Positions 24,779 through 40,833 are shown, counted from the stretch's first letter. The stretch: 50,484 bases of DNA from an uncultured archaeon (GCA_964616715.1 CAZTRL010000003.1:1-50484), one strand, 5' to 3'. The notes: generated by a model from the letters alone, not told the origin. Translations and numbers: made by a program.

Positions 24779-25829
24779 CCAGAATCTCCTCTTTCTTCAG
24801 GTAAGGGTTCATCGGAAGCGAAAGAATCTTTGAGGCTATGGATTCTGCGATGGGAAGCTCTGGGAATCCATAGTCCATGTATGCAGGCTGCTTGTTTATC
24901 GGGATTGGATAGTATATGCCTGACTCTACGCCGGAGCTCTTCAGATGGCTGAGGAGAGCGTCACGGCTGTCAGTCATTATGGTGTACACGTAGTAGGCGG
25001 CCTTGGCGTAGTCCTTCTCGGTTGGCAAGGCAACGTTTGGAGGGAGGTTCTTTGAGTACACGGCCGCCACGTCTCGTCTACTCTCGAGCCAGCCGGGTAG
25101 CCTCTTCAGCTCTATCCTTCCTATTGCCGCGAGTATCTCCGGCATCCTGTAGTTGTAGCCTATGACATCGTGCTCGTACTTCTTGTCCTTGGCCCTTCCC
25201 TGGTTCCTTATCATGCGCATCTTCTCCGCCAGCTCGGAATCTCCCGTGGTGACCATGCCGCCTTCACCGCACACCGTCATGACCTTGGACGGGAAGAAGC
25301 TGAAGGCGGCGGCTGTACCTATGGAACCGGCCTTCCGGCCCCTGTACTCGGCGCCATGCGCCTGGCATGAGTCCTCGAGCACGAAAATCCCCTTGGCCTC
25401 CGCAATCTCCGTTATGGGGTCCATGTCTGCAGGGTGGCCGTATATGTGCACGGGGATTATTCCCTTGGTCCTGGATGTTATCGCGGCTCCTATCTTCGCA
25501 GGGTCTATGTTGTGCGTGTCAGGCTCCACGTCGACGAGCACGGGCTTGGCTCCAGCGTGGACTATGGCATTTGCTGTCGCGATGAACGAATGCGTGGTGG
25601 TTATGACCTCGTCTCCATGGCCGACACCCATGGCCGCGAGGGCGACGCTGAGGGCGGACGTTCCCGACGAGGTCGAGACAGCCTCCTTTGTCCCGCAGAA
25701 GGCCGCGAACTCGCTTTCGAATCCCTGCGACTCCTTGCCCATGACGTACCTTCCGGACTCGAGGACGTCAATGACTTTTCTCTTTATTTCGTCATCAATC
25801 GCAAGGTTGGGACTGCAGAGCTTTATCAT
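24738..25829 (-). CDS. DegT/DnrJ/EryC1/StrS-family PLP-dependent sugar aminotransferase (WbpE/WlbC-like)
   Basis: 363 aa. FSFFPSKVMTVCGEGGMVTT contains the PLP lysine box. The pattern is typical of the family throughout. Confidence 0.9.
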   Translation of the reverse strand: MIKLCSPNLAIDDEIKRKVIDVLESGRYVMGKESQGFESEFAAFCGTKEAVSTSSGTSALSVALAAMGVGHGDEVITTTHSFIATANAIVHAGAKPVLVDVEPDTHNIDPAKIGAAITSRTKGIIPVHIYGHPADMDPITEIAEAKGIFVLEDSCQAHGAEYRGRKAGSIGTAAAFSFFPSKVMTVCGEGGMVTTGDSELAEKMRMIRNQGRAKDKKYEHDVIGYNYRMPEILAAIGRIELKRLPGWLESRRDVAAVYSKNLPPNVALPTEKDYAKAAYYVYTIMTDSRDALLSHLKSSGVESGIYYPIPINKQPAYMDYGFPELPIAESIASKILSLPMNPYLKKEEILDVCASVSNFFSKD

Positions 25830-25864
25830 GAGAAGACCACCATAGAGAAAATAGCAGTGTATGT

Positions 25865-26485
25865 TTAATATGCTTTCTCCCCGCTATCGAACGCGAGATT
25901 CGCTACCTCATTTATCTTCTTCGCGGGATTGCCTGCCACCACCGCACCTGGAGGGACGTCTCTCGTGACGACGGACCCGGCGCCCACAAGAGAGTCCTTG
26001 CCTATGGTGACCCCTGGGAGCACCGTCACGTTGGCGCCAATCTTCGCATTCTCTCCAACGGTCACGCCTAGAAGGTGCTCTTTCGCATGAGGGCTCTTCG
26101 GATAGGGGGCGTTTGTGAGCGTGACACCGGGCCCGATCCATGCGCCGTCCTTTATGTCGCTGTACTCCGGTATGAAGGCGAGGCTGTGCATCCTCACGCC
26201 GTTCCCTATCCTGCAGTCCCTCTCAAGGACGGCTCCCGTTCCTATGCTGACGTCGCTGCCTATGGCGCAGTTCTCCCTTATCATCACGCGATGCCCGGTC
26301 TCGAGCCTGTCACCTATTATGCTTCCGGCGTATATGACGGAATGCGAGCGTATGTTCGCGTCCTTTCCTATGGCGGTAGAAAGCTCCCCTTCCTTCTTTC
26401 CCCTGGGAGGCTCGCCTATTATGGAGAACATGCCTATCTCGGAACCGCCCCCGAGCTTGACGTTAGCGCGAACAGTTACATCCAT
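25865..26485 (-). CDS. Left-handed beta-helix (hexapeptide) acetyltransferase (WbpD/WlbB-like)
   Basis: 206 aa with hexapeptide repeats throughout (IGKDANIRSHSVIYAGSIIGDRLETGHRVMI...). The C-terminus is GNPAKKI. Confidence 0.85.
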   Translation of the reverse strand: MDVTVRANVKLGGGSEIGMFSIIGEPPRGKKEGELSTAIGKDANIRSHSVIYAGSIIGDRLETGHRVMIRENCAIGSDVSIGTGAVLERDCRIGNGVRMHSLAFIPEYSDIKDGAWIGPGVTLTNAPYPKSPHAKEHLLGVTVGENAKIGANVTVLPGVTIGKDSLVGAGSVVTRDVPPGAVVAGNPAKKINEVANLAFDSGEKAY

Positions 26486-27433
26486 TCATCCACCGACCTT
26501 CACTGGCTTGCCCGTCTCAGCCGACCTGAGGCATGCCTCGCAGACCTTGGTTATCATGTATTCGGCATCGGCGCCGTCCTGGCGGCCGGCCGATGCGCAT
26601 TCGCAGAAGTACTTGAGTTCTTCCTTGAGTGGCTCGTTCTTCCTTATGTCGACACGGATCTCCTTTTCGCTCACCACCTTTCCGTTTTCTATCCTGATTG
26701 GATACTTTACCATCATCTGCTCGAGGAAGTCCACGTATATCTTCTGCTTGGAGCCGATGACCCACATGTCCCTCTTCTTCTCCGGATGGAACCACGTCAC
26801 CTCGAGGCTCGCCGGGAAGTCGCCGTAGTCGAGGTTCATAAGCGCGCAGTCCTCCCTCTCATCCGAGAGATAATTGACCTTCCTGCACGTCACGGTCTCG
26901 GGTTCCCTCTCCGTGAGGAAGTTCAGTATGTCGACAAGGTGGGTCGCGAAGTTCAGTATCACGCCTGAGTCCTTCCTTGGTGGTTTGTTCGAGTGTATGA
27001 ACCTGGTCGTTATGTAGTGTATGTCGCCGGCTTCCGGGAGCCGCTTTTTTAGCTCCAGAACGGAAGCGTTGAACCTGAAAAGATAGCCCACCATGAGCAC
27101 CAGGTTCTTCTGCTTTGCCTTCTTTATGAGTTCCATGGACTGCGATGCCCTTGGTGTCATGGGCTTTTCGACTATCACGTGCTTCCCAGCGTCAATGCAG
27201 TCAGAAACGACGTCGTAGTGAAGGTCCGTGGGAACGACGACGGACACGGCGTCCACTTCGGGCAGCATCTTCCTGTAGTCGCTGAAGAACTTGACGGAGA
27301 ACTCGTCGGCGATTTTCCTGGAGGTGGGGTTTATGTCGGCTATGCCGACGAGCTTGCAGTTGAGCTCGCTGTAAACCCTCACGTGGTTCTTCCCCCACTT
27401 TCCCGCACCTATCACGCCGACTTTGAGGGACAT
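26486..27433 (-). CDS. Gfo/Idh/MocA-family NAD(P) oxidoreductase (WbpB/WlbA-like)
   Basis: 315 aa. Motifs are MSLKVGVIGAGKWGKNH (Rossmann) and HVIVEKPM (the EKP motif). Its stop directly abuts the next ATG (TGAATG). Confidence 0.85.
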   Translation of the reverse strand: MSLKVGVIGAGKWGKNHVRVYSELNCKLVGIADINPTSRKIADEFSVKFFSDYRKMLPEVDAVSVVVPTDLHYDVVSDCIDAGKHVIVEKPMTPRASQSMELIKKAKQKNLVLMVGYLFRFNASVLELKKRLPEAGDIHYITTRFIHSNKPPRKDSGVILNFATHLVDILNFLTEREPETVTCRKVNYLSDEREDCALMNLDYGDFPASLEVTWFHPEKKRDMWVIGSKQKIYVDFLEQMMVKYPIRIENGKVVSEKEIRVDIRKNEPLKEELKYFCECASAGRQDGADAEYMITKVCEACLRSAETGKPVKVGG

Positions 27434-27480: not shown

Positions 27481-28896
27481 CTAGCCGGTGGAGGACATTA
27501 TTATGCGCCAGGCCGCGCTCATGAATTTCTTCATCTCGGTTGGGTTGGAGACCCTCATCAGCGTCTGCACTATGAAACGGGGCCTGAAGTAGTACTGTTT
27601 GTAGGCCCGCTTGACCCACTTGCGCTGTTCTGCCGGCGGCAGCTCCTTCAGGTTGAGCTGGCCGTCGGAGAAGAAGAGGTGCATGAACTGGCTTGTCCTC
27701 TTCATGTACCAGTGGGGGTCCTTTATGGCTCCAGTCTTCACCGCCCAGAAATATATGTCGGTGTTGGGATAAGCCATGGTCGGCGCGAAGTTGGCGAAGT
27801 CCGGGCTGAGCTCCTTTGCGAAGGCTATGGTCTTCCTGACCGTCTCCGGCGTCTCTCCTGGATTCCCTATCATGAAGAAGCCCTGAGTCGTTATTCCTGC
27901 CTTCTTTGTGAGACGGAACGCTCTTCTCACCTGGTCAAGGGTTATGTTCTTGTGTATGTTGTCGAGTATCTTCTGTGAACCAGATTCTATGCCGTACGCT
28001 ATCTGCTTGCACCCGGCTTCTTTCATCGTCTTGAGAAGGGGTCCGTCGACGCAGTCGACGCGCGTGTTGCAAAGCCACTCTATCCTTATCTTGCGTTTCT
28101 TGATTTCATTGCAGAAGTCGATTACCCAGTCCCTTCTTACAGTGAAAGTGCTGTCCTTTATGAATATCTCATCGATGCCGAACTTCTTGTTCAGCTCCCC
28201 TACCTCATCCACGGTATTGGCCACGGACCTCATCCGCAGCCTTCTTCCCATCGTGGTGTGGACATCGCAAAAAGCGCAGTTGAAAGGGCATCCCCTGGTC
28301 ATTATTATGGACCCGACCCTCTTCTTGGACCCGCTGAAGATTGAGTAGTCCGACAAGTCTATCAGCTTGTGGTCCGGGAACGGTATGCTGTCAAGGTCCT
28401 CTATGAAAGGTCTTGCCTGGTTTGTTTTTATCCTGCCTCGGCTGTCACGATATATGAGGCCCTTTATCTTGGAAACGTCGCCGTCTGGGATGGCTCTCGC
28501 GAGTTCCACTATTGTCTCCTCACCCTCTCCGCATATGAGGTAGTCCACGTCATTTGTGTATTCCAGCACTTCGCCTTTCGTGCCATTTATGTGGGGACCG
28601 CCGAGGCATATCCTGACACCGGGACATTCCTCCTTCACGAGCTTTGCGAAGTCCAGCGTTATCGGGACGTGTGGTGTCATTATGGAGATGCCGATGAGGA
28701 ATGGCATCTCTGACTTTACCATCGAGACGACATCATCCATGCTGTAGTCTTTGACCCTCCAGTCCACGACGTTGACATGGAATCCGGCCTTTTCCAGTGA
28801 CGATGCGAGGTAGAGTATGCCTAGCGGGGGGAGCGTGTTGCCTTCGTCCCTCCCCACCTCTATCGGGGGAACCAGAAGTAATACATTGCTTTTCAT
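27481..28896 (-). CDS. B12-binding-domain radical SAM enzyme (class B rSAM), paralogue of 14083-15444
   Basis: 471 aa. Motifs are PLGILYLASSLEKAGFHVNVVD, GGPHIN, GEGEETIVELAR, and TRGCPFNCAFCD (CxxxCxxC). Confidence 0.85.
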   Translation of the reverse strand: MKSNVLLLVPPIEVGRDEGNTLPPLGILYLASSLEKAGFHVNVVDWRVKDYSMDDVVSMVKSEMPFLIGISIMTPHVPITLDFAKLVKEECPGVRICLGGPHINGTKGEVLEYTNDVDYLICGEGEETIVELARAIPDGDVSKIKGLIYRDSRGRIKTNQARPFIEDLDSIPFPDHKLIDLSDYSIFSGSKKRVGSIIMTRGCPFNCAFCDVHTTMGRRLRMRSVANTVDEVGELNKKFGIDEIFIKDSTFTVRRDWVIDFCNEIKKRKIRIEWLCNTRVDCVDGPLLKTMKEAGCKQIAYGIESGSQKILDNIHKNITLDQVRRAFRLTKKAGITTQGFFMIGNPGETPETVRKTIAFAKELSPDFANFAPTMAYPNTDIYFWAVKTGAIKDPHWYMKRTSQFMHLFFSDGQLNLKELPPAEQRKWVKRAYKQYYFRPRFIVQTLMRVSNPTEMKKFMSAAWRIIMSSTG

Positions 28897-28988: not shown

Positions 28989-29966
28989 ATGAAGAAGTCC
29001 CATATTCTGAAGAGCGGGATGGCGCTCATGAAGGTCTATGCAGGAGGCAAGGTTCCGCTGAAGGTCTCCCACTACATAACCTACAGGTGCAACCTGAGGT
29101 GCATATTCTGCTCGGCGTGGAAAAACAAGGGAAGAGAGGAGATGACGACAGATGAGATAAAGGATGCCATGGACGCATTCAAAAGCATGGGTACCGTTTC
29201 CTGGAGCATAAGCGGTGGTGAGCCATTCATAAGAGATGATTTGCCTGAGATTCTCAGGCACGCCAAGTCCAATGGGTTTATTACGAGCGTCGTCACTAAC
29301 GGCACCTTTCCGCACAGGATAAAGGATGTGAAGGGTCTTGTGGACCTTTTACTGATAAGCATAGAAGGCGGAAAGGACGAGACCGACCATTACAGGGGAA
29401 CGGGGACGTTCGACAAGGTGAAAGAGACGATAGGTGAGGTGAAGAAGTACGGGATTAACACAAACCTGAACACCGTGCTGAAATGGGACAACAGGAAGCA
29501 GATGGAGTATATAATAAATCTCGCCGAAGAGAATGGCCTGATGTGCGGTTTCCAGCCCATATTCGACTATAGTGACGGGAGGGAGCTGAAGGAGATAGTC
29601 GAATCCGAAGCCAAGCTGGAGGGTATCCACGGAAACATACGATTCATAGAGAAAGCAAAGAAGGAAGGAAAGCCCATATTGAATTCGTTCTCTTACATGA
29701 AGTACATAAGAAACTACGGCAAAGGCGATTTCAAGAAATTGCGTTGCTTTGCAGGAAGGAATACGGTCCTGTTGGAGCCCGACGGAACCATGAAGAGATG
29801 CTACTGGGATGCGAAGCCTGTAAAGAAAGGCGACTGGAAAGAGTCTTTCAGATGTGTCGGGAAGGCCCCTGAAGGCTGTTATTGCTGGCCGAAATGCCAT
29901 GGTGAGAACAATGCCATATTTTCACTGAGCATTGATTCAATACTGAATGCGAAAAAGCGCATATGA
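28989..29966 (+). CDS. Radical SAM enzyme with a Cys-rich C-terminal auxiliary-cluster (SPASM/twitch-like) domain
   Basis: In-frame ATG 28989 (MKKSHILK..). YRCNLRCIFC is the CxxxCxxC motif, and GGEPF is also present. The last ~80 aa contain 7 Cys (LRCFAG..KRCYW..FRCVG..EGCYCWPKCHGE). Track start 28797 overlaps the divergent rSAM gene and is rejected. Confidence 0.8.
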   Translation: MKKSHILKSGMALMKVYAGGKVPLKVSHYITYRCNLRCIFCSAWKNKGREEMTTDEIKDAMDAFKSMGTVSWSISGGEPFIRDDLPEILRHAKSNGFITSVVTNGTFPHRIKDVKGLVDLLLISIEGGKDETDHYRGTGTFDKVKETIGEVKKYGINTNLNTVLKWDNRKQMEYIINLAEENGLMCGFQPIFDYSDGRELKEIVESEAKLEGIHGNIRFIEKAKKEGKPILNSFSYMKYIRNYGKGDFKKLRCFAGRNTVLLEPDGTMKRCYWDAKPVKKGDWKESFRCVGKAPEGCYCWPKCHGENNAIFSLSIDSILNAKKRI

Positions 29967-30086: not shown

Positions 30087-31025
30087 ATGTACAAGAAGCA
30101 CAAGGTCGCACTCGTCGTCCCGGCGTACAAAGAGGAGAAGATGATAAGGGCCACGATGGAAGGCGCGGGGAAGCAGTTCGACAGGATATACGTGATTGAC
30201 GACTGCTCACCTGACAAGACCGCATCCATAGTGGAGGCTCATTCCAAGAAGGACAGGAGGGTCGTCCTCCTGAGGCATGAGAAGAACAAGGGAGTCGGCC
30301 AGGCCATAATAACGGGATACAAGCAGGCCGCAAAGGACGGTTGTGACATAGCCGTGGTAGTGGGCGGGGACAACCAGATGGACCTCGCCGACGTGGATAA
30401 TTTACTCGAGCCCATAGTGAAGGGCGAGGCCGACTACGTCAAGGGCAACAGGTGGATGTGGCACTCTCTGGATGTGATGCCAAGGCACAGGTTCTTTGGG
30501 AATTCGAGCCTTTCGCTTCTGACCAAGCTGGCATCCGGATACTGGAAGATATTCGATACGCAGGATGGATACACGGCGACCACCAGGAACCTCATAGAGA
30601 CGGTAGACTGGAGCAAGGCGTGGAAGGGGTATGGCTACGTCTCCGACTGGCTCATAAGGCTGAACGTCTATGGGTTCAGGGTGAAGGACGTGCCTAGGAG
30701 GCCAATCTATCTGGAAGGGGAAAGGCAGTCGCAGATAGGCATAGGAAGATACATGGTGAGGGTACTGCCGATGCTCATGAAGGGCTTCTTCTGGAGGCTA
30801 AAGGAGAAGTACATAGTGAGAGACTTCCATCCGCTGGTGTTCTTCTACATACTGGGCCTCATACTCACGCCCGTGGGTTTTCTGACGGGATTGTGGCTGA
30901 TTTGGCACAGCCTGTTCGTGGGCGGCGTGAGCGGGTCAACGGCCGTGTTGGTGGCCATGATGCTCATACTCGGCCTTCAGTCGACGTTCTTCGCGATGTT
31001 TTTTGACATGGAAGCAAGCAAGTGA
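30087..31025 (+). CDS. GT2 polyprenyl-phosphate sugar synthase, GtrB/AglD-like, with C-terminal TM hairpin
   Basis: 312 aa. Motifs are VALVVPAYKEEKMI, VIDDCSPDKT and GGDNQMD. There are two C-terminal TM segments (LVFFYILGLILTPVGF.., AVLVAMMLILGLQS). Confidence 0.85.
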   Translation: MYKKHKVALVVPAYKEEKMIRATMEGAGKQFDRIYVIDDCSPDKTASIVEAHSKKDRRVVLLRHEKNKGVGQAIITGYKQAAKDGCDIAVVVGGDNQMDLADVDNLLEPIVKGEADYVKGNRWMWHSLDVMPRHRFFGNSSLSLLTKLASGYWKIFDTQDGYTATTRNLIETVDWSKAWKGYGYVSDWLIRLNVYGFRVKDVPRRPIYLEGERQSQIGIGRYMVRVLPMLMKGFFWRLKEKYIVRDFHPLVFFYILGLILTPVGFLTGLWLIWHSLFVGGVSGSTAVLVAMMLILGLQSTFFAMFFDMEASK

Positions 31026-31030
31026 ATCTA

Positions 31031-31040
31031 AATTTAAATA
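31031..31040 (+). promoter_or_regulatory. TATA box (aatttaaata) upstream of the GT-C gene
   Basis: It is centred about 25 nt upstream of ATG 31060, with leaderless geometry. Confidence 0.45.
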
Positions 31041-31059
31041 ATACAGCCAATTTGGTTGT

Positions 31060-32610
31060 ATGTTTCTGCGAAGAAGGGTCAGGCCCGAGATTTTCACTAA
31101 ACTTCTGGCGGCATTCATCATTGTGTATGCGGCGGTGCTCCTTGTCGGGATAGGATACAGGACGGCCATCTGGGATGAGTTCCAGAATACGGCCCTCCCC
31201 TTCCTTCTGTATGACATGACGACAAACGCCGGAAGCATCGGTCCCGGCTTCGCGGCGTTGAAGGCATACGCCATCGATTACCAGGCCCATTATGCGGTCT
31301 TCTACAGCCTCATACACCACCCACCCTTCCACCGCATATTCCTCTATGCGGCTTTCATGCTGGCTGGCCCCGGGGAGGTCTCCGGAAGGGCGGTGAGCGT
31401 GGCGTTCGCCGTCCTGGCGCTTGTCGTGACGTATATGGCCGCATACAGGATGACAAAAAGAAGAGACCTGTCTTTGCTTTCCTCTGTGACGCTTGCGCTC
31501 ATCCCGACGTTCTCGGAGTTCAGCCGCCTGATAATGCTCGAAATTCCGCTTGTAGCGATGACAACCCTGACCGTCTATGCGTTCCTGAGGTATGAGAAGA
31601 GCCGGAAGGCCTCTGATGCAATACTGCTGGGTGTCGCGGCGGGACTATGCATGCTCACCAAGAACTACGGCCTGCTCGTGCTGGTGCCTTTGGGGCTGTA
31701 CATGCTCGTTGAGGGAGGCATCCGCTCATTCGCTGACAGGAAAGTGCTGATGGCGCTGGCCGTTGCGCTTGCCATGGCCGTCCCGTGGTATGTCTTCGCG
31801 GCCATGCTCCCGTCGATTGCTGGTGTTAACGAAAACCTTGTAGGCGCGTATGTAAGCTACTTCTCTCCGAACCCGGAGGTGTTTGCCGAGGTCCCGTCAT
31901 TCTATCTCATGACATTCTCGTGGATACTGGGCCCGCTTTCAATCCTGGCGGTCGTGAGAGCCTTCATGAGGAGGGACAAGACGGATGTGCTGCTTCTACT
32001 GTGGGCGCTTTCGTATTTCATCTTTTTCATGGTTGCGATAGGCCCTTCGGTAGGCCATTTGCACAGGTTCATAATGCCGGCTCTCCCGGCTTTCGCCATA
32101 CTCATTGCAAGACTCATGGGAGAGATTGTGGACTCGAGAAGGTTCAGGCACCCATGGCACATCATAATGGCCGTGCTTGTCTGCTCTGCAGCACTCTCGG
32201 TTGCGTACAACGCTTCCGTCGACGTGAGAAAGCCCATGGACGAGGCGTCAGTGTACATACTAGCGAATTCCAATGTGGGGGACGGTGTTATAACTACAGA
32301 CTTCTACCAGACATTCTACCTGCTAAAGCACGACAGGGACCTCAAGGTGTTCAACTTGAACGCAAGGAACATGGAAACTCTGGGCTCGATACTCAACAGC
32401 ACTCACGCAAGCCCGGCGAGGGATGCGGTGGGCATTAAGAATCCTGAAAACTATAGTTATCTTGTGCTAGAATACCCTCTCCAGCCCAAGGTGGAGGCCA
32501 ATCCGGACTTCGTCAGCTTCATAGAGGACAGCGGCTGTCTCCACAAGGAGAAGGTTTTCGGGAACGAAACCGAGATAGTGTTATACAGGTTTGATGAGGA
32601 TTGCGCATGA
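31060..32610 (+). CDS. GT-C fold membrane glycosyltransferase (ArnT/PMT-like)
   Basis: 516 aa and polytopic. The first external loop is TAIWDEFQNTA (the same W-D-E motif as the 610-aa paralogue). The soluble C-terminal domain is about 130 aa. Confidence 0.75.
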   Translation: MFLRRRVRPEIFTKLLAAFIIVYAAVLLVGIGYRTAIWDEFQNTALPFLLYDMTTNAGSIGPGFAALKAYAIDYQAHYAVFYSLIHHPPFHRIFLYAAFMLAGPGEVSGRAVSVAFAVLALVVTYMAAYRMTKRRDLSLLSSVTLALIPTFSEFSRLIMLEIPLVAMTTLTVYAFLRYEKSRKASDAILLGVAAGLCMLTKNYGLLVLVPLGLYMLVEGGIRSFADRKVLMALAVALAMAVPWYVFAAMLPSIAGVNENLVGAYVSYFSPNPEVFAEVPSFYLMTFSWILGPLSILAVVRAFMRRDKTDVLLLLWALSYFIFFMVAIGPSVGHLHRFIMPALPAFAILIARLMGEIVDSRRFRHPWHIIMAVLVCSAALSVAYNASVDVRKPMDEASVYILANSNVGDGVITTDFYQTFYLLKHDRDLKVFNLNARNMETLGSILNSTHASPARDAVGIKNPENYSYLVLEYPLQPKVEANPDFVSFIEDSGCLHKEKVFGNETEIVLYRFDEDCA

Positions 32611-33272
32611 AGGTGTCTGTGATCATCCCGGCTTACAACGAGGAGAAGGCCATAGCAGAGGTCTTGGAAGACGTGAAGGTCGCGGCGCTAGGCAGCCATG
32701 AGGTAATAGCCGTTGACGACGGCTCTTCGGACGGGACCTACGAGAAAGCGAGGAAGGTGAAAGGTGCCAGGGTTATAAGGCACAGGAGGAATACGGGAAA
32801 GGCTGGTGCGCTCAAGACGGGATTCGAGGCAGCGAAGGGTGAGATTCTTGTCACTATAGATGCCGACTGCACTTATCCTGCAAATGACCTTCCAAGAATA
32901 GTGGAGCCTCTCCTGAAAGGGAAGGCGGATGTCGTGATAGGGTCCAGGTTCATGGGAAAGAGCACAGAGATGGCGAGGCTCAATTACTTCGGCAACTGCA
33001 TATTCGCGGCCGTCGTTTCGCTTCTCACGGGAAAGAAGGTGACGGATCCCTCATCGGGCATGCGGGCCTTCAGGAGGGATGTCTGGAAATCCCTTGACAT
33101 AAAGGCCAAGGGCCTGGACTGGGAAGTCGAGATGACCACGGCGTCTGTAAGGAAGGGTTACAGGCTCATGGAAATTCCGATAGAGTATCACGACAGGGTC
33201 GGGGAGGCGAAACTCAGCAGGTTCAAGGACGGCTCCAAGTTCCTCCTGGCAATACTCAGGGCGCGCTTCTGA
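32607..33272 (+). CDS. GT2 polyprenyl/dolichyl-phosphate sugar synthase-like glycosyltransferase (DPM1 type)
   Basis: The track start 32601 is TTG. ATG 32607 overlaps the upstream stop (ATGA). Motifs are VSVIIPAYNEEKAI, AVDDGSSDGT and TIDADC. Confidence 0.85.
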   Translation: MKVSVIIPAYNEEKAIAEVLEDVKVAALGSHEVIAVDDGSSDGTYEKARKVKGARVIRHRRNTGKAGALKTGFEAAKGEILVTIDADCTYPANDLPRIVEPLLKGKADVVIGSRFMGKSTEMARLNYFGNCIFAAVVSLLTGKKVTDPSSGMRAFRRDVWKSLDIKAKGLDWEVEMTTASVRKGYRLMEIPIEYHDRVGEAKLSRFKDGSKFLLAILRARF

Positions 33273-34236
33273 ACTCCTTCAGCACGTCGCTGCTCCTTAT
33301 GGGATTCGAGACCCACAGCACAGCTCCGGCGGCTCCCATGACCACATACGTAGTCATGAAGGATAGGAGGGAAAGCGAAACGGCAGACTCCGAGGGTATT
33401 GACACGAGGGAAAAGAAGAATATCAGCGCCGCGTCCCTAGTGCCTATGCCTGAGAAGGATACGGGAAGGGTGTCTAGAAGGACAGCTATTGGCACCACGC
33501 CCATGAAGAAGGTGTAGGGAAGATCGAGGCCTATGGCGGAGGAAAGCAGCCAGAACTGGCTTATTGATATGATCCACGTCACGACGCAGAGGAGGACAGC
33601 AGCTCCCAGCATGGGCTTCCTCATCCCGGATAGGCCTTCGTAGAAATCGTGGAATGCCCTCCCGAGAACGTTATGGTACCTTGATGGCAGCAGCCTGAGC
33701 GAGAGCGGCCTCGCGACCCTTAGTATGATTGACTTCCTCATGAGTGCCGCGACGAGTACCAGGAAAATCAGGAAGGCGCCGGAGATGTATGCCAGAAGGC
33801 CTGTGCCCTGGGACATGCCTCCGGCTATTACGGCCATCCCCGCAAGCGAGAAACAGAAGAGCACGACTATGTCGTTTATCCTGTCCAGAAATACGGTGGT
33901 GAGGGACTTGCCCCCGCTCAGGCCCGTCTCTTTCCTGAGGTACAATGCTCTTGAAAGGTCGCCTATCCTGCCGGGTGTTATTATCCCTAGGAAGAACCCG
34001 GACAACCAGGCTCGTATGGACTTCAGCAGGCTGTACCCGGTACCATATGACCTTATAATCACATTCCACTTGAGGCTCTTGAGTATGATGTTCGGCACCG
34101 CCAAGAGTATGGAGCACGAGACGAGCGCCGGGTCAGCAGAGGACAGTATGGAGAGGAGCCTTCCGGTGTCTATGTTGAGTATTATGACGGCGAAGATGAC
34201 CAGGCCTACTAGCGGCAGGAATGATGCCTTTCTCAT
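33256..34236 (-). CDS. Polytopic membrane protein, UPF0104 / LPG-synthase-TM 'flippase-like' family, paralogue of 15446-16390
   Basis: 326 aa with about 8 TM segments. Its 3' end overlaps the convergent GT2 gene by 17 nt. Confidence 0.65.
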   Translation of the reverse strand: MRKASFLPLVGLVIFAVIILNIDTGRLLSILSSADPALVSCSILLAVPNIILKSLKWNVIIRSYGTGYSLLKSIRAWLSGFFLGIITPGRIGDLSRALYLRKETGLSGGKSLTTVFLDRINDIVVLFCFSLAGMAVIAGGMSQGTGLLAYISGAFLIFLVLVAALMRKSIILRVARPLSLRLLPSRYHNVLGRAFHDFYEGLSGMRKPMLGAAVLLCVVTWIISISQFWLLSSAIGLDLPYTFFMGVVPIAVLLDTLPVSFSGIGTRDAALIFFFSLVSIPSESAVSLSLLSFMTTYVVMGAAGAVLWVSNPIRSSDVLKEFRSAP

Positions 34237-34256: not shown

Positions 34257-35093
34257 TCAGCTTTCCTCATGCTTCTTTATCCTCTTCATGAGGCTTTCTC
34301 TTTCCTTTATGTGGAGGTCCACGTCAAGGAACGAGAGGAGGTCCTTCTCCGTCTTCAGTATCGTTTTCCATTTTCCTATGTCGAGATACTTGCCACTTAA
34401 CACCACGCCGTAGACACTCTCGCCGTTCCTCAGCGCCAAGTCTATGGCGTCCGTTATCTGTATCTCTCCCTTGGCCCCAGGCCTGGTCTTATCTATATAG
34501 TCGAATATCTTCGGCTCGAAGACGTAAGCCCCGCACATGGCATAGTAGCCGCCGTTCACCCTGTAGTCCCTCGCCTTCTCTGCGCCGGGCTTCTCCACCA
34601 CCTTTGTCACGGCGCCGCAGCAGTCGTTTTCCATCTTCACCCTGGCGATCCCGTATCCCTTCGGGTCGGTAACCTCGAAAAGGAGAAGGGTCGCGATGGG
34701 TTTTTTCTTTTTGTGCACATTTATCAGCTGCTTTATCTCATCCTTGGGCTCTATGAAGGAATCGCCGAGAAGCGTGACGAAGGTCGTGTCTATCCAGTCC
34801 TTCCCCTGATTTATCGCATGGCCAAGGCCCTTTCTCTTCATCTGGTATATGTATGCGGTGTTCACGCCGAAGAAAGAGCCGTCGCCGATGTAGTCCATGA
34901 GCGCGCCCTTCTGGTAGCCTACCACCATGAATATCTTCTTTATGCCCCCTTTCCTGAGGTTCTCTACACAGTGCTCTATAACGGCCTTGCCGAGTATAGG
35001 GTACATCTCCTTTGGGACCGCCCTGGCAAACGGATACAGCCTTGTCCCGCTTCCCGCGGCAGGTATGAGCCCCACTATCTCATCGCATGGCAT
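34257..35093 (-). CDS. Sugar-1-phosphate nucleotidyltransferase (RmlA/GalU-like)
   Basis: The track start 35102 is GTG. ATG 35093 gives MPCDEIVGLIPAAGSGTRLYPFARAVPKEM (canonical GxGTRL) and forms a TAATG overlap with the upstream dehydrogenase stop. Confidence 0.85.
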   Translation of the reverse strand: MPCDEIVGLIPAAGSGTRLYPFARAVPKEMYPILGKAVIEHCVENLRKGGIKKIFMVVGYQKGALMDYIGDGSFFGVNTAYIYQMKRKGLGHAINQGKDWIDTTFVTLLGDSFIEPKDEIKQLINVHKKKKPIATLLLFEVTDPKGYGIARVKMENDCCGAVTKVVEKPGAEKARDYRVNGGYYAMCGAYVFEPKIFDYIDKTRPGAKGEIQITDAIDLALRNGESVYGVVLSGKYLDIGKWKTILKTEKDLLSFLDVDLHIKERESLMKRIKKHEES

Positions 35094-36385
35094 TACCAGC
35101 ACACCCCCTCGAAACCCGAGACGTTTGAAGGGTCCAGCATCCTTCTTCCTTCGATAACGATGTTCCCCTTCATGAGCCTGAAATCGTCATTCGTGAGCCG
35201 CCTCACCTCGTCCCACTCTGTCAGCAGAAGGCAGGCATCGCTGTCCTGTATGGCCGCCCTTGCGCTCATGCAGTACTCCACGCCGGGGAACTCCTTCCTG
35301 AAGTTGTCCGCGGCCTTGGGGTCGTATGCCTTCACGCGGGCCCCGGATGACAGCAGCTCGGAGACTATGGCAAGCGAAGGGGCTTCCCGTATGTCATCCG
35401 TACCAGGCTTGAAAGCAAGTCCAAGGACGGATACCACCTTGCCCCGCAGGGACGGCATGCGCCCGCGAAGCATATTGACTATGGTCAGGGGCTGCATGCG
35501 GTTAACTTCCTCTACGGCATCCAGGAGGCTCATCTTGAGTCCCTCCTTCTTCCCCTTCGCGATTATAGCCTTTACGTCTTTTGGGAAGCAGCTGCCTCCG
35601 TACCCTATCCCCGAATTGAGAAACCTCCGCTCTATCCTCTCGTCGAGGCCCATGCCGTCGGCGACCTCGTAGGAGTCTATGGACAGCTTCTTGCACAGGT
35701 TGCCCATCTCGTTTGAGAATGATATCTTCGTGGCGAGGAATGCGTTGCTCGCATACTTTATCATCTCCGCGGTCCTGGGATTGGTCTTCACCACGGGGCA
35801 ACTGAACCCCCTGTAAAGCGAATATACCCTCTCCGTGGACCTTTCGTCTATGCCGCCTATTATGACCCTTCCTGGGTTCATGAAGTCGCTGACTGCCATG
35901 CCCTCCTTGAGGAACTCCGGGTTCATCGCGACGCCGAAACCACTCCCGGCCTCCTTGCCGGAGGCCTCCTCCAGTATGGGGATTATAACACCCTCCGTGG
36001 TTCCCGGAACCACCGTGGACTTGACGACCACCGTATGGTACGTATCCTTCTTTCCGATAGCACTTCCCGTCTCCTCCGCAGCCTTCCTTATGTATGAGAG
36101 GTCTACTGTCCCGTCCCTCCTCGAGGGCGTCCCGACTGCGATGAAGGTGATGTTGGTCCCAAGAACTGCCTTCTCGAGACGGGTGGTAGCATGCAGCCTC
36201 CCGTGGCCTATGTTCTTCCGGAGCATCCGGTCCAGACCTTCCTCGTATATGGGTGCCACTCCGCCGTTTATCTTCTCTACCTTGTCCTCGACCACGTCCA
36301 CGAGGGTCACGTGGTTCCCGAGGTCGGCGAGGCAAGCCCCCGTTACCAACCCGACGTAACCGGAACCTATGATGGAGACTTTCAT
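35093..36385 (-). CDS. UDP-glucose/GDP-mannose dehydrogenase family, UDP-glucose 6-dehydrogenase-like
   Basis: In-frame ATG 36385 gives MKVSIIGSGYVGLVTGACLADLGNHVTLVDV. GYGGSCFPKDV is the catalytic Cys box. Length is 430 aa. The 192-codon upstream extension in the track (to 36961) overlaps the opposite-strand gene and is rejected. Confidence 0.9.
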   Translation of the reverse strand: MKVSIIGSGYVGLVTGACLADLGNHVTLVDVVEDKVEKINGGVAPIYEEGLDRMLRKNIGHGRLHATTRLEKAVLGTNITFIAVGTPSRRDGTVDLSYIRKAAEETGSAIGKKDTYHTVVVKSTVVPGTTEGVIIPILEEASGKEAGSGFGVAMNPEFLKEGMAVSDFMNPGRVIIGGIDERSTERVYSLYRGFSCPVVKTNPRTAEMIKYASNAFLATKISFSNEMGNLCKKLSIDSYEVADGMGLDERIERRFLNSGIGYGGSCFPKDVKAIIAKGKKEGLKMSLLDAVEEVNRMQPLTIVNMLRGRMPSLRGKVVSVLGLAFKPGTDDIREAPSLAIVSELLSSGARVKAYDPKAADNFRKEFPGVEYCMSARAAIQDSDACLLLTEWDEVRRLTNDDFRLMKGNIVIEGRRMLDPSNVSGFEGVCW

Positions 36386-36406
36386 AGCATTATTTTCAGA
36401 GTGTGG

Positions 36407-36417
36407 TTTATATATAG
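36407..36417 (-). promoter_or_regulatory. TATA box (tttatatatag region) in the 84-bp divergent spacer
   Basis: It is centred about 27 nt upstream of ATG 36385 on the minus strand. A second T-rich element (ttttttaga, 36441-36449) lies about 25 nt upstream of ATG 36470 on the plus strand. Confidence 0.45.
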
Positions 36418-36469
36418 TTTTGAGCGGCGCACTAGCCGGGTTTTTTAGACTGGCGTCCAATATTACTGC

Positions 36470-37303
36470 ATGAGGAAGAAGCGCATCTCGATGACGATAA
36501 ACCCGGAGGTGCTGTCGCGGATAGACTCCCTCGTGGACGGCAGGGACATAAGGTCGAGGTCCGAGGCGATAGAGTCCGTGATGTCGCAGTACCTCGAGGC
36601 TAACAAGACGGCAGTGTTCCTCGGCGGAGGGGACATGGGAAGCCTGATGATAAAGGGGACTCTCAAGCCCCTCATAAGGATAGGCGGCCGGGCGCTCATA
36701 GAGCACAACATAGAGCGGCTGAGGAGGTCCGGGTTCCGAAGGATATACATAGTAGGGAAGAGCGAGTTCATAGGGGAGTGTTTCAAGCTTCTCGGGAACG
36801 GGAAGGGAATGGGCGTTGGCATAGAGTACATAGAGGAGGCCAGGACGCTCGGGAACGCCAAGACGCTCCAGTTGGCCGAGCCCTACATGAAGTCCCCATT
36901 CCTTGTCCTGCCGGTCGACAATTTCTTCGACTTCGACCTGGACTACTTGTCGAGGGCTCACATGAAGTCCGGCGGGACGGCCACGCTTGCTGTGCAGTCG
37001 GGAAGGGATGCGAAGATAGACGTCGGGGTCGTCGAGATGATGGGAAACGGGATAATCAGCTATGAGGAGAGGCCTAAGAACCCCAAGACGTTCCTGGCCG
37101 CGACGTTCATAGGGATGTACGACCCGGCAATATTCGAGTACATACCGAAGGGGAGCGCCAAATGGGTGCTGCAGACAGACGTCTTCGGCAAGCTAATAAA
37201 GGAGAGGTCTCTCCTCGGGTGCATAGTCCCAGGCTTCTACATGAACATAGACACGGAGAAAGATGTGAGAGCCGTGGGCGAGTTCTTGGGAAGGAAAAAG
37301 TAA
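36470..37303 (+). CDS. Ribbon-helix-helix (CopG/NikR-like) DNA-binding domain fused to a nucleotidyltransferase-fold domain with a degenerate NTP loop
   Basis: 277 aa. KRISMTINPEVLSRIDSLVDG..RSRSEAIESVMSQYLE shows the RHH beta-alpha-alpha pattern. It is followed by AVFLGGGDMGSLMIKGTLKPLIRIGGRALIEH, which is NTP_transferase-like but lacks the GxGTRL Arg. Confidence 0.75.
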   Translation: MRKKRISMTINPEVLSRIDSLVDGRDIRSRSEAIESVMSQYLEANKTAVFLGGGDMGSLMIKGTLKPLIRIGGRALIEHNIERLRRSGFRRIYIVGKSEFIGECFKLLGNGKGMGVGIEYIEEARTLGNAKTLQLAEPYMKSPFLVLPVDNFFDFDLDYLSRAHMKSGGTATLAVQSGRDAKIDVGVVEMMGNGIISYEERPKNPKTFLAATFIGMYDPAIFEYIPKGSAKWVLQTDVFGKLIKERSLLGCIVPGFYMNIDTEKDVRAVGEFLGRKK

Positions 37304-37318
37304 TACTATAGTATTACT
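37299..37318. repeat. Perfect 20-bp palindrome agtaatactatagtattact spanning the stop codon of the RHH fusion gene
   Basis: Read directly: positions 37299-37308 are the reverse complement of 37309-37318. An extra gtaat half-site lies at 37321-37325 (GTAAT-N8-ATTAC-N3-GTAAT). Confidence 0.9.
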
Positions 37319-37331
37319 GTGTAATAAATAG

Positions 37332-37342
37332 TTATTTAAAAG
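37332..37342 (+). promoter_or_regulatory. TATA box (ttatttaaaag) for the second UDP-sugar dehydrogenase
   Basis: It is centred about 37 nt upstream of ATG 37374. The 10-mer tatttaaaag recurs at 41635-41644. Confidence 0.45.
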
Positions 37343-37373
37343 TCCCTGTCGTAACCTCATCTAAGGTGTTTTG

Positions 37374-38726
37374 ATGGGACTCAGGGAAAAGCTTCTTGCG
37401 GGGGACATGAAGATAGGAGTCTGGGGAACCGGATTCATAGGCTTCACTACGATGGCCAACATGGCATACAACGGCATAAGCTGCATAGGATATGACGTCG
37501 ACGAGGACAAGGTAAGGACCATAAACGAGGGAAAGATACCGATAGAGAATCTCGAGTACTGGCTCGGCTTCGACATAGAGAACCTCGTCGAGAGGGGAAT
37601 GCTCCGCGCCACGACTGACGTGGCTGAGATGATGGACCCGGCGATAGCAGTCCACTTCGTCTGCATACCAACGGAGAAGGGCGGAGAGCCATACGACAAC
37701 ATTCTGAAGGATGTCATCGGAAAGATTGCGGGGCTGAAGAAGTCGGGGCACAGCGAACCGCCTGTCGTGATAGTGGAGTCGACTCTCACGCCGGGGAGGA
37801 GCGACATGATAGTGCTCCCGATACTAAGGAATGCGGGAGTCGATGTCGGGAGGGACATGCTGTACGGCGTCGCGCCAAGGAGGGACTGGTTCGTCTCCCC
37901 GGAGAAGAGCCTGAAGAAGCTTCCCAGGGTGTTCGGCGGCACCACGCAGAAGACCACCGAGGCCATGAGGGATGTCCTGTCCCTCGTATGCGACAGCCTC
38001 GTGCCCGCCCCCGACCACAAGCACGCCGAGATGGTGAAGTCCATAGAGAACGCCTACAGGCACATGGAGATAACGCTTGCGAACCAGCTCTCGCTGGCAT
38101 ATCCAGACGTCAACATGACGGAGGTGCTGCGCCTCGTGGGGACGAAATGGAACATCGGGACGTATCATCCCAGCTTCGGGACCGGAGGCTACTGCATACC
38201 GCTCTCGAGCAAGTATGTGCTCCTCGGGGCGAGGCACCCGGAGAAGGTGACAATACTGAAGGAGACAATATCGTCCGACGGGCGCCAGCCTGAAGAGGTG
38301 GCGGCCAGCCTGAAGAGGCGCGGCATACGGAGCGTCGGGATACTGGGGCTCGCCTACAAGGGTGACATAAAGGTTACCATACTCTCCCCTACCATAAAGC
38401 TTGCAAAGGAGCTTTCGCGTCTTGGGATATCGGTGAAGGTCAACGATCCGTACTACACAGACGAGGAGATAAAGAGTGTATCGGGTGTCGGTTCCTTCGA
38501 CTTCCCGGACGGGCTGTCGGAGTTCGACGCCGTCCTGATAGTCGCCGACCACCAGCACTACAGGTTCACCCCGCACAACTCCATCCTTAAATCCCTTGGC
38601 TCGTGCAGGATAATACTGGACAATACCGAGATATGGAAGGACATAGACTTCTCATCGAGGGGTATAGAATACCATGTGGCAGGTGATGCGGGTTGGCTGG
38701 AGCCCCTGACTTCAATGAAGAAGTAA
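37374..38726 (+). CDS. UDP-glucose/GDP-mannose dehydrogenase family, UDP-N-acetyl-hexosamine 6-dehydrogenase-like (WecC/WbpA/Cap5O type)
   Basis: The track start 37371 is TTG and the ATG is at 37374. Motifs are KIGVWGTGFIGFTTMANMAYNG (Rossmann), GGYCIPLSSKY (catalytic Cys box) and VGILGLAYKGD (C-terminal domain). Confidence 0.8.
   Translation: MGLREKLLAGDMKIGVWGTGFIGFTTMANMAYNGISCIGYDVDEDKVRTINEGKIPIENLEYWLGFDIENLVERGMLRATTDVAEMMDPAIAVHFVCIPTEKGGEPYDNILKDVIGKIAGLKKSGHSEPPVVIVESTLTPGRSDMIVLPILRNAGVDVGRDMLYGVAPRRDWFVSPEKSLKKLPRVFGGTTQKTTEAMRDVLSLVCDSLVPAPDHKHAEMVKSIENAYRHMEITLANQLSLAYPDVNMTEVLRLVGTKWNIGTYHPSFGTGGYCIPLSSKYVLLGARHPEKVTILKETISSDGRQPEEVAASLKRRGIRSVGILGLAYKGDIKVTILSPTIKLAKELSRLGISVKVNDPYYTDEEIKSVSGVGSFDFPDGLSEFDAVLIVADHQHYRFTPHNSILKSLGSCRIILDNTEIWKDIDFSSRGIEYHVAGDAGWLEPLTSMKK
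38284..38318. repeat. 15-nt perfect direct repeat gccagcctgaagagg, two copies offset by 20 nt, inside the dehydrogenase CDS
   Basis: The copies are at 38284-38298 and 38304-38318. They are read in different codon phases (QPEE vs ASLKR). Confidence 0.9.
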
Positions 38727-39526
38727 GGCGCATAGTGCGCACGGCGCTGGCCGAGGACATAGGGAGCGGTGACATAACTACGGAGAGCACCGTGCCCTCA
38801 GGCATACGTGTCCGGGCCTCGATAGTCGCAAAGGAGAGCTGCGTCGTCTGCGGCCTTGACATCGCAAAAGAGGTGTTCTTAGGTATAGGGAAAGTCGATT
38901 TCGATAAGGCAGTGGACGACGGCGAGAGCGTGCCGGGGGGCCGGGAGATAGCCGTGGTTTCAGGCGACGCGCAGGTGATACTCAAGGGTGAGAGGACTGC
39001 GCTCAACTTCCTCCAGAGGCTTTCCGGCATAGCGACAGTCACAAGGAAGCTAGTCGAGAAGTCAGGGAGGAAGGCCATGATAATGGACACTAGGAAGACC
39101 ACGCCGGGCCTCAGGGTCATCGAGAAGTACGCGGTCAGGTGCGGGGGCGGCACGAACCACAGGAAGGGCCTTTACGACGAGATACTCATAAAGGACAACC
39201 ACATAAGCCTCGTGGGCCTCGGGAGCGCGGTCGCCGCCGCGAGAAAGACCGGGAAGGCCGTCGAGGTCGAGGCGAGGGACATGGGCGAGGTAAGGGAGGC
39301 TATTGCCGCCGGGGCCGACATAATACTTCTTGACAACATGCCTGCAGAAGAGATGGCCAAGGCCGTAGAGGAGATAGGCGGAAGGGCCGCCACCGAGGCC
39401 TCCGGAGGGGTCACGGAGGAAAACATAACAGAGATAGCGGCGACGGGGGTCGACCGGATATCCGTCGGCTCGCTCACGCACTCCGTCAGGTCCGTGGACA
39501 TAGGCATGTACATGAAGAAGGTGTAA
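38693..39526 (+). CDS. nadC: Nicotinate-nucleotide pyrophosphorylase (quinolinate phosphoribosyltransferase)
   Basis: 277 aa. Motifs are ALAEDIGSGDITTEST and DTRKTTPGLRVIEKYAVRCGGGTNHRKGLYDEILIKDNHI. The only available start is TTG 38693, which overlaps the upstream gene by 34 nt. Confidence 0.85.
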   Translation: MAGAPDFNEEVRRIVRTALAEDIGSGDITTESTVPSGIRVRASIVAKESCVVCGLDIAKEVFLGIGKVDFDKAVDDGESVPGGREIAVVSGDAQVILKGERTALNFLQRLSGIATVTRKLVEKSGRKAMIMDTRKTTPGLRVIEKYAVRCGGGTNHRKGLYDEILIKDNHISLVGLGSAVAAARKTGKAVEVEARDMGEVREAIAAGADIILLDNMPAEEMAKAVEEIGGRAATEASGGVTEENITEIAATGVDRISVGSLTHSVRSVDIGMYMKKV

Positions 39527-39527
39527 G

Positions 39528-40454: not shown

Positions 40455-40494
40455 AAGCTTAATAACCGCAAAACGACATAAATAACTGACTGTC

Positions 40495-40833
40495 ATGAAA
40501 TTCGGAATAGATGAGTTCAGGAAGGTAGGGAAAGTCGTCAAGGACAACGACACCTACACGGTGATAGACGTGAGGAAGCTCGATGACCTCGTGGTCTCGC
40601 TTACCGTCCTCCATCCTGGAAAGGAGACCGGCGGCCATTCGCATGACGATGCCGAGGAGGTCTACAACTTCGGGGAAGGGTCAGGCGAGATGGAGCTCGG
40701 CGGTCAAAGGTTCCCCGTCAAGGAAGGCAGCATAGTCATAATACCGAAGGGCGCCTTCCACAAGGTCTTCAATACCGGCAAGTCCGACCTGAAGTTCGTC
40801 TGCGTGTTCGAGAAGTACGGTGACAGGGACTAG
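40495..40833 (+). CDS. Small cupin-domain protein
   Basis: 112 aa. GHSHDDAEEVYNFGEGSGEMELGG...IVIIPKGAFHKVFN shows cupin motifs 1 and 2. The substrate is unknown. Confidence 0.7.
   Translation: MKFGIDEFRKVGKVVKDNDTYTVIDVRKLDDLVVSLTVLHPGKETGGHSHDDAEEVYNFGEGSGEMELGGQRFPVKEGSIVIIPKGAFHKVFNTGKSDLKFVCVFEKYGDRD

Follow-up and report, generated by a model that had tools for sequence, protein, structure and literature searches.

A stretch of 50,484 nt from an uncultured archaeon of a salt-marsh metagenome (CAZTRL010000003.1; this whole stretch is called the window below) carries at 30087-34236 a four-gene module that probably carries out extracytoplasmic glycosylation. Its three components are divided between two predicted convergent transcription units, and in it a stand-alone protein of the UPF0104 family would translocate a sugar linked to dolichyl phosphate (Dol-P). 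The movers of dolichyl- and undecaprenyl-phosphate monosaccharides are poorly defined, in archaea and in eukaryotes alike. A UPF0104 protein, predicted to share the solved MprF-type lipid-translocating fold and placed between the maker and the consumer of a lipid-phosphate sugar, is a genetically testable candidate for this role, and the locus, being compact, conserved and clean, would suit a test of UPF0104 as an archaeal Dol-P-monosaccharide flippase. The module is a new instance of a prediction published in 2015 and not a new concept. What the locus adds to it are linkage numbers, an operon tie to UDP-glucose/UDP-glucuronate supply, two specialised paralogous gene sets and a likely acceptor. 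Two products encoded in the window, L10e and a signal peptidase I of the archaeal type (TIGR02228, above cutoff), point to an archaeal origin. In a genome scan with a UPF0104 alignment, the nearest relatives were metagenome-assembled genomes (MAGs) of DPANN archaea, Aenigmatarchaeota among them, or of unclassified archaea. No Rfam families or tRNAs were found in the window.

Genes, junctions and predicted folds of the module

An earlier sequence-only reading of the window had proposed a glycosylation module made of a membrane-anchored family 2 glycosyltransferase (GT2), a GT-C glycosyltransferase and a second GT2, converging on a flippase-like UPF0104 gene. We confirmed this gene order and the positions of the open reading frames (ORFs), which are as follows (TM, transmembrane):

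30087-31025, plus strand: GT2-A, TM-anchored GT2, putative dolichyl-phosphate sugar synthase; 312 aa; PF00535 1e-21
31026-31059, plus strand: 34-nt spacer between GT2-A and GT-C0, with the TATA-like octamer TTTAAATA at 31033-31040
31060-32610, plus strand: GT-C0, ArnT/PMT-type GT-C; 516 aa; PF13231 (PMT_2) 2e-21, PF02366 (PMT) 3e-16
32607-33272, plus strand: GT2-B, soluble DPM1/AglJ-like GT2; 221 aa; PF00535 6e-37; DAD motif D85/D87
33256-34236, minus strand: UPF0, stand-alone UPF0104/PF03706/TIGR00374 protein; 326 aa; PF03706 1e-48

The junctions were also as previously described. GT2-A and GT-C0 are separated by 34 nt, and the ATG of GT2-B at 32607 overlaps the stop codon of GT-C0 as ATGA, an overlap through which GT2-B appears to be translationally coupled to GT-C0 (a mechanical ORF list starts GT2-B at a TTG, 32601). 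UPF0 converges on GT2-B with a 3' overlap of 17 nt (33256-33272).

The C-terminal TM hairpin attributed to GT2-A corresponds to two hydrophobic helices predicted at about residues 247-307, and GT2-A has the GtrB/ArnC/AglJ-like architecture of a GT-A domain followed by a two-TM hairpin. In NCBIfam the AglJ model spans residues 7-309 of GT2-A at 1e-23, below cutoff, and the match to the DPMS structure 5mlz in the PDB search was weak (3e-9). GT2-B, in which TM prediction found no helix, matched P. furiosus DPMS (5mlz, 9e-25), ArnC (8e-17) and GtrB (2e-9) in the PDB, and AglJ (7e-49), the haloarchaeal Dol-P-hexose transferase (1e-44) and PpgS (2e-31) in NCBIfam. Because all the NCBIfam matches are below the equivalog cutoffs, the placement of GT2-A and GT2-B in the polyprenyl-phosphate glycosyltransferase clade (DPM1/GtrB/ArnC/AglJ) is supported at the level of the clade only.

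GT-C0 has about 11 TM helices, ends in an extracytoplasmic domain of about 130 aa and carries the residues W38-D39-E40 in the first external loop. Its AlphaFold2 model (pLDDT 78, pTM 0.83, with a low-confidence C-terminal domain) was built on a shallow alignment, obtained from a word-index search that gave 4 homologues and then 27 relatives. The top Foldseek match of this model was ArnT (5f15/5ezm, E 7e-12, TM-score 0.66), followed by STT3, ALG12, PglB, PMT, AftA and DPY19, and all 42 top matches were GT-C enzymes. D39, together with P88, P89 and R110, is invariant in an alignment of eight GT-C0 orthologues. By its Pfam matches and this model, GT-C0 has the GT-C fold, with an acidic residue in its first external loop.

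UPF0 matched PF03706 with 166.6 bits against a gathering cutoff (GA) of 33.4, over residues 10-304 (302-position model), and TIGR00374 with 111.5 bits against a cutoff of 43.2. The top six Foldseek matches of its AlphaFold2 model (pLDDT 84) were all MprF (7f47, 9j8q, 9goe, 9j8s, 7duw and 6lvf; TMq 0.61-0.68), and the next fold had a TM-score of 0.30; UPF0 is predicted from this model to have the fold of the MprF transmembrane (flippase) domain. Searches of the PDB by sequence only, with either the single UPF0104 sequence or a 21-sequence profile, gave no MprF match, and the link is made through the fold comparison only. UPF0 is not a bifunctional MprF, as it contains PF03706 only and no aminoacyl-phosphatidylglycerol (PG) synthase domain (DUF2156/PF09924); the bifunc_MprF model (NF033480) did not match it, and gave 22 bits against a cutoff of 600 with UPF1, the second UPF0104 protein encoded in the window. 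The family is large (61,257 cluster representatives at E<=1e-3), and the nearest relatives of UPF0 in it are stand-alone proteins of about 320 aa. R90, D122 and R267 of UPF0 are invariant. None of the annotated window proteins matched a family of small flippases such as GtrA/GtcA or ArnE/F, and the module has no spare coding space. UPF0 is the only candidate translocator in the module.

Conservation of the module and gene linkage of UPF0104

The closest homologue of UPF0 (66% identity) sits in an identical four-gene module in the closest relative of the window (loci L001/L006). L007 and an Aenigmatarchaeota MAG (L010/L049) share the same module, with proteins of 312, about 529, 224 and about 330 aa, which makes three other archaeal MAGs with UPF0104 identities of 45-66%; the GT2-A orthologues of L006, L007 and L010 all have 312 aa. 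The spacer between GT2-A and GT-C0 (AAATTTAAATAATACAG.CAATTTG.TTGTATG) is almost invariant between the window and L006 (9853-9886), whereas the proteins that flank it are less conserved (69% for GT-C0, roughly 80% for GT2-A), suggesting that it is a functional non-coding element, for example a leaderless promoter inside the unit or a site of regulation. By direct reading, TTTAAATA lies about 23 nt 5' of the GT-C0 ATG. The TATA box that the earlier reading gave to the GT-C gene is present as this TATA-like octamer, which is kept with the spacer in L006; L007 and L010 have neither, and their gap measures 12-13 nt. Since the spacer is kept in the closest relative and replaced by these short gaps in the more distant ones, TTTAAATA is plausible as an internal leaderless promoter of GT-C0, and a lineage-specific one.

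The genes on both sides of the module complete its two predicted transcription units:

28995-29966, plus strand: radical SAM protein (non-B12, weakly PTO1314-family-like); PF04055 7e-28; TIGR03961 1e-36, below cutoff
34257-35102, minus strand: AglF/GalU/RmlA-like sugar-1-phosphate nucleotidyltransferase; PF00483 1e-43
35093-36385, minus strand: AglM-like UDP-glucose 6-dehydrogenase (UGDH), first gene of the operon; three UDPG_MGDP_dh domains; NF041297 (AglM) 3e-156

In L001 and L049, too, a radical SAM gene of 325-327 aa precedes the GT2-A orthologue and is read in the same direction; the one in the window is the probable first gene of the GT2-A/GT-C0/GT2-B transcription unit. On the other strand, the nucleotidyltransferase gene lies 20 nt 5' of UPF0 and overlaps the AglM-like gene. 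Its product matched the NCBIfam models RmlA-long (6e-53), GalU (6e-48) and AglF (3e-43), all below cutoffs, and the AglM-like protein scored 521 bits against the NF041297 cutoff of 670. The same nucleotidyltransferase gene is found 5' of UPF0104 in L001, L002, L049, L050 and L052, and a 430-aa AglM-like orthologue is found upstream in L001, L002, L004, L049 and L050. The order UGDH, nucleotidyltransferase (in some cases with an epimerase) and then UPF0104 is thereby present in L001, L002, L049 and L050 and partly in L004 and L052, that is, in 5-6 contexts, and this conserved order indicates that UPF0104 is transcriptionally part of a sugar-nucleotide operon. UPF0 is the last gene of the minus-strand AglM-like/AglF-like operon, facing the GT2/GT-C operon.

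The linkage of UPF0104 to other genes was analysed in 43 genome loci (L006-L048) encoding relatives of UPF0, mostly from DPANN archaea, with some from Methanosarcinales and some from bacteria. They came from a genome scan with a 10-sequence UPF0104 alignment, the 21-sequence one being too divergent for this purpose. The ORFs of these loci were classed with hidden Markov models iterated from the proteins of the window itself, which are thus clade-derived; the loci were picked by similarity to one UPF0104 clade and share common ancestry, so that the counts obtained from their 51 non-redundant UPF0104 genes are not independent events. A GT2 gene lies within 150 bp of 51% of these genes and a GT-C gene within 1 kb of 43%, while for 86% at least one of the two lies within 3 kb. 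Up to 1 kb from UPF0104 the density is 0.32/kb for GT2 and 0.25/kb for GT-C, and beyond that distance it is 0.02-0.14/kb. GT4 genes of the same islands, used as a control, showed no density peak beside UPF0104. Since the densities of GT2 and GT-C peak beside UPF0104 while that of GT4 stays flat, the UPF0104/GT2/GT-C arrangement exceeds what chance would give. Around nine of the UPF0104 genes, the first kilobase contains a GT-C gene but no GT2 gene, and seven of these nine have no GT2 gene within 3 kb either; these loci fit a tie of UPF0104 to the enzyme that consumes a lipid-phosphate sugar better than a tie to a soluble lipid-glycosylating transferase. Moreover, the tail-to-tail arrangement of UPF0104 with a short GT2 lacking TM helices is shared by 7 genomes, even where identity has fallen to about 40%.

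The favoured mechanism and its alternatives

Taken together, the predicted MprF fold, the linkage to GT2 and GT-C genes, the ArnT-like fold of GT-C0 and the clade of GT2-B favour the flippase role that the sequence-only reading had suggested for UPF0104. From these folds, motifs and linkages we infer a carrier, a sugar, a translocated substrate and its direction, and an acceptor, in a scheme that would run as follows. The AglM-like and AglF-like enzymes would supply a UDP-hexose or a UDP-hexuronate, as their homology and conserved operon context suggest. GT2-B, GT2-A or both would then move one sugar to Dol-P at the cytoplasmic face, by homology with DPMS, ArnC, GtrB and AglJ. UPF0104 would bring the resulting Dol-P-sugar to the outer leaflet, a step for which the fold is predicted and the substrate is suggested by gene linkage only. 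Finally, the ArnT-like GT-C0, with its GT-C fold, would use Asp39 to put the sugar on an external acceptor, plausibly the N-glycans or residues of a sequon-rich surface protein encoded at the left end of the window (see below).

This scheme has several precedents. UPF0104 (arCOG00899) was described by Makarova, Galperin and Koonin in 2015 as a homologue of the MprF flippase domain and of the C-terminal domain of AglD, and its archaeal neighbourhood with arCOG00563 (MJ_1079, PMT/STT3-like) and arCOG00897 (MJ_1080, AglD-like GT2) accompanied the prediction of glycosylation flippases (PMC5898192); the present label of COG0392 is 'Predicted membrane flippase AglD2/YbhN'. The same three families, assigned by protein family and not by formal arCOG, are adjacent in the window, with the same predicted flippase role. 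The window differs in having two GT2s, one TM-anchored and one soluble, and a convergent UPF0104 gene that ends an AglM/AglF-like operon. The mannose that AglD of Haloferax loads onto Dol-P is transferred on the outside by AglS, and AglF and AglM make UDP-sugars (PMC3871713). We propose that the module resembles the AglD/AglR/AglS system of H. volcanii in that a GT2 would charge Dol-P, the charged carrier would be delivered outside and a membrane transferase would pass the sugar to a surface-protein glycan, and AglF- and AglM-like enzymes are encoded alongside it. In contrast with AglD of the HVO_0798 type, which is a single polypeptide, GT2-B and UPF0104 are separate convergent genes; the module has no AglR homologue, a Wzx-like gene being found 7 kb off beside another GT-C gene (GT-C2); and glucose or glucuronate is suggested here in place of mannose, the NCBIfam Agl models scoring below their cutoffs. 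The earlier reading cited AglD and missed that it has a C-terminal UPF0104 domain. Since AglD carries this domain, GT2-B and UPF0104 look, by analogy, like a split AglD.

The bacterial systems show the same logic with other translocators. As in ArnC/ArnE-ArnF/ArnT with Ugd, ArnA and ArnB, a Ugd-type enzyme would be followed by a GT2, a flippase and a GT-C, with ArnT as the best structural match of GT-C0 and a match of GT2-B to ArnC at about 1e-16. However, the candidate flippase here is an MprF-like protein of 8-10 helices, unlike the small SMR-like ArnE/F pair, the module lacks the ArnA formyltransferase and the ArnD deformylase, and its acceptor cannot be lipid A. The GtrA/GtrB/GtrC systems of phages and enterobacteria and the CsbB/GtcA/YfhO systems of Gram-positive bacteria share with the module the GtrB architecture of GT2-A, an external GT-C and a tight cluster; they differ in that GtrA/GtcA (PF04138) is missing from the annotated window genes and UPF0104 occupies that slot.

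Several observations weigh against the mechanism that we favour. In agreement with the earlier statement that the role had not been demonstrated experimentally, our literature search found no UPF0104 protein shown to move a polyprenyl-phosphate sugar, and all the experimentally studied substrates are glycerolipids. The delivery of Dol-P-mannose in Haloferax has been tied experimentally to the Wzx-like AglR and not to the AglD C-terminus (PMC3871713). GT2-UPF0104 fusions of the AglD type were absent from 123 loci (43 genome, 80 metagenome) and from the 150 best family representatives, which leaves the resemblance to a split AglD resting on the literature. The NCBIfam equivalog matches, all below cutoffs, establish neither the sugar nor the carrier. 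Two GT2 genes accompany one GT-C gene, a pairing that the scheme does not explain, and UPF0104 is outside the GT2/GT-C transcription unit, on the opposite strand. Lastly, the reverse count took in 53 GT2-B-like genes from metagenomes, 30-50% identical and flanked by 3 kb or more of sequence; a GT-C gene was present within 3 kb in 30% of them and a UPF0104 gene in only 4%. The co-occurrence that had been proposed as a check on the flippase role therefore holds in one direction, from the UPF0104 clade to GT2 and GT-C, and not in the other; the 4% indicates that UPF0104 is not a general requirement. The UPF0104 clade is specialised for GT2/GT-C contexts, whereas GT2/GT-C pairs generally need no nearby UPF0104.

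We also considered other roles for UPF0104. It is rather unlikely, in our view, that it flips a glycosylated archaeol-based (phospho)lipid made by GT2-B, as MprF does with lysyl-PG and as in GpgSDF (P. aeruginosa) and HexSDF (C. difficile), with GT-C0 acting independently through another donor route. The PF03706 domain has been generalised as a promiscuous lipid translocator fused to varied lipid-modifying enzymes (10.1101/2022.03.11.483950; PMC11980842), and the TM domain of P. aeruginosa MprF translocates lipids as a promiscuous scramblase (PMC11980842). UPF0 shares with these systems that domain, the predicted MprF-like fold and a cytoplasmic lipid-modifying partner, and the membrane glycerolipids to which UPF0104/MprF proteins have been connected experimentally, such as the glucosamine-PG (GlcN-PG) made by GpgS, GpgD and GpgF (PMC12713373), speak for such a role. 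So does the setting of the second GT2/UPF0104 pair of the window, which adjoins an operon for a CDP-alcohol phosphatidyltransferase and an HpnJ-like B12 radical SAM protein, together with the mild enrichment of B12 radical SAM genes by UPF0104 in the 43 loci (0.10/kb within 1 kb, about 0.03/kb further out). The two UPF0104 paralogues match the GlcN-PG flippase model weakly (1e-4 and 8e-6), yet with only 21-25 bits against the cutoff of 320 for GlcN_PG_flip (NF053789). The window also differs from these systems in having no aminoacyl-PG synthase and a GT-C gene in the cluster. GpgSDF and HexSDF are operons of a lipid glycosyltransferase, a deacetylase and a UPF0104 protein, whereas no deacetylase family was found among the annotated window proteins, the module included. 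The nearest characterised relatives of GT2-B are polyprenyl-phosphate glycosyltransferases and not GT4 enzymes like GpgS, and GT-C is as tightly linked to UPF0104 as GT2 is, including the seven loci without a GT2 gene within 3 kb.

Those seven loci fit equally well with a role after the GT-C reaction, in which UPF0104 would return dolichyl phosphate to the cytoplasmic leaflet, much as DedA/DUF368 proteins recycle undecaprenyl phosphate. Alternatively, UPF0104 would be a general scramblase that happens to share its regulation with envelope glycosylation. The broad, non-selective scrambling by the MprF TM domain, the proposal that E. coli YbhN is a bulk-lipid translocator and the scarcity of UPF0104 near most GT2/GT-C pairs agree with such roles, but two divergent paralogues (30% identity) that keep their own GT2/GT-C partners across phyla suggest specialisation, and the fusion of UPF0104 to the sugar-charging GT2 in AglD points to the charged and not the empty carrier, making recycling or general scrambling improbable. 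That UPF0104 merely sits in an island of envelope genes, its convergent overlap with GT2-B being incidental, we regard as most improbable. UPF0104 and GT2-B are indeed on opposite strands, 15/51 UPF0104 genes lack both GT2 and GT-C in the nearest 1 kb, and the sample, picked for its resemblance to one clade, is not phylogenetically independent. Nevertheless, the density peak is limited to the first kilobase and is not seen for GT4 of the same islands, the tail-to-tail pair is kept over the 7 genomes described above, and GT2-UPF0104 fusions are known in Euryarchaeota (PMC5898192; 10.1101/2022.03.11.483950).

A second module, a candidate acceptor and the surrounding island

The inventory of related genes given by the sequence-only reading was borne out by Pfam. 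The window has three PMT_2 GT-C genes (starting at 31060, and at 9779-11611 and 23234-24778 on the minus strand), and W-D-E follows TM1 in two of them, GT-C0 and GT-C1, and not in GT-C2. The 'three or four' GT2s are four, at 7741, 16407, 30087 and 32607, and a second GT2 plus UPF0104 pair is present at 17132-15446. This pair and the genes beside it are:

17132/17174-16407 and 16390-15446, minus strand: second pair, a soluble GT2 followed by UPF1, 16 nt apart (Pfam)
9779-11611, minus strand: GT-C1; PF13231 6e-11; 'VTWDENRY' after TM1; a methyltransferase gene just upstream, 11672-12409
12566-13288: CDP-alcohol phosphatidyltransferase, weakly archaetidylinositol-phosphate synthase-like
13289-14086: methyltransferase
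14083-15444: HpnJ/BchE-like B12 radical SAM protein

TM prediction found no helix in the GT2 of this pair. UPF1 and UPF0, at the 30% identity given above, each have their own orthologues, and the GT-C1 orthologue lies directly beside UPF0104 genes, on their other side, in L007 and L010/L049; GT-C1 is the likely partner of the second pair. Because the orthologues of GT-C1 (in L007 and L010/L049) and of the second pair (in the Aenigmatarchaeota L010/L049) adjoin those of the first module, the two modules of the window belong to a single conserved super-cluster in which two paralogous lines of UPF0104 run side by side. The earlier suggestion of several independent decoration steps agrees with this, as each line has its own orthologues and its own GT2/GT-C partners. 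A second step, parallel to the first, is probable, and would use the GT2 at 16407, UPF1, the methyltransferase and GT-C1.

One further gene bears on the acceptor:

3-3182, minus strand: secreted surface protein, of which the N-terminal 1054 aa are encoded before the gene runs off the window; NosD/beta-helix and Ig-like domains

This protein has 92 N-X-S/T sequons (8.7 per 100 aa), roughly three times as many as its composition would predict; composition shuffles gave 29 +/- 4.7, with a maximum of 45 in 500 shuffles. Its gene contains degenerate, Ig-like repeats about 530 nt long, and the archaeal signal peptidase I is encoded beside it, at 3654-4148. Judging from its sequence, the product would probably be a surface or S-layer-type protein with heavy N-glycosylation, and it is a plausible candidate glycan acceptor for the enzymes of the island.

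Combining these elements, we put forward a wider proposal, which we hold tentatively and somewhat short of probable. In it, stand-alone UPF0104 proteins would be dedicated archaeal translocators of Dol-P-monosaccharides, in the role played in bacteria by GtrA or ArnE/F and with the AglD C-terminus as a fused example, and two parallel, paralogue-specific lines, fed by AglM/AglF-like enzymes (a Dol-P-glucose or Dol-P-glucuronate route), would decorate the sequon-rich surface protein (about 9 sequons per 100 residues).

The second pair is convergent with the three-gene operon of the CDP-alcohol phosphatidyltransferase, the methyltransferase and the B12 radical SAM protein listed above. L049 lacks this insert and has GT2, UPF0104, methyltransferase and GT-C in an unbroken row. 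Its presence in the window hints that lipid headgroups may be modified beside a flippase-like gene. The two B12 radical SAM proteins of the window (14083-15444 and 27481-28896) have HpnJ and BchE as best NCBIfam matches, at about 236-240 bits, below cutoff, and strings of GT2, radical SAM and UPF0104 genes are frequent in the loci analysed (for example L002, L009, L014, L023 and L039). Because of these best matches, the HpnL/HpnI/HpnJ cluster for the hopanoid cyclitol ether was considered as a model; it stays a side remark for the second module and was rejected for the first, as no B12 radical SAM gene is in the GT2-A/GT-C0/GT2-B/UPF0104 unit and the UPF0104 proteins miss the HpnL model; the nearest such gene, at 27481-28896, is divergent and upstream of the radical SAM gene at 28995-29966. 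The fusion search returned one 603-aa protein with two matched UPF0104 stretches, and L052 encodes (13862-15517) a 551-aa fusion of UPF0104 with an S-adenosylmethionine-dependent methyltransferase, adjoining a B12 radical SAM gene, which is another fusion of the flippase-like domain with a lipid-modifying enzyme.

GT-C2 (23234-24778), the protein without W-D-E, is encoded by a gene convergent with and abutting that of a Wzx-like flippase (Polysacc_synt, 21931-23229), and the same pair is present in the closest relative (L006, 15225-17649). The pair may serve a step of its own that acts on oligosaccharides, as a ligase or polymerase would. At 24738-27433 on the minus strand lies a WbpB/WbpE/WbpD-like trio (UDP-GlcNAc 3-dehydrogenase-like protein, 225 bits; DegT aminotransferase; hexapeptide acetyltransferase), and 35093-40553 encodes two NDP-sugar 6-dehydrogenases and a TviC/GalE-like epimerase. 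Such a gene set suggests that diacetamido-uronic acid sugars are made, as in the N-glycans of methanogens. The island also encodes unusual fusions: a ribbon-helix-helix (CopG) N-terminus with a sugar nucleotidyltransferase (36470-37303, plus strand), Trm112 with a methyltransferase (8675-9730, minus strand) and a nitroreductase with a methyltransferase (20605-21867, plus strand).

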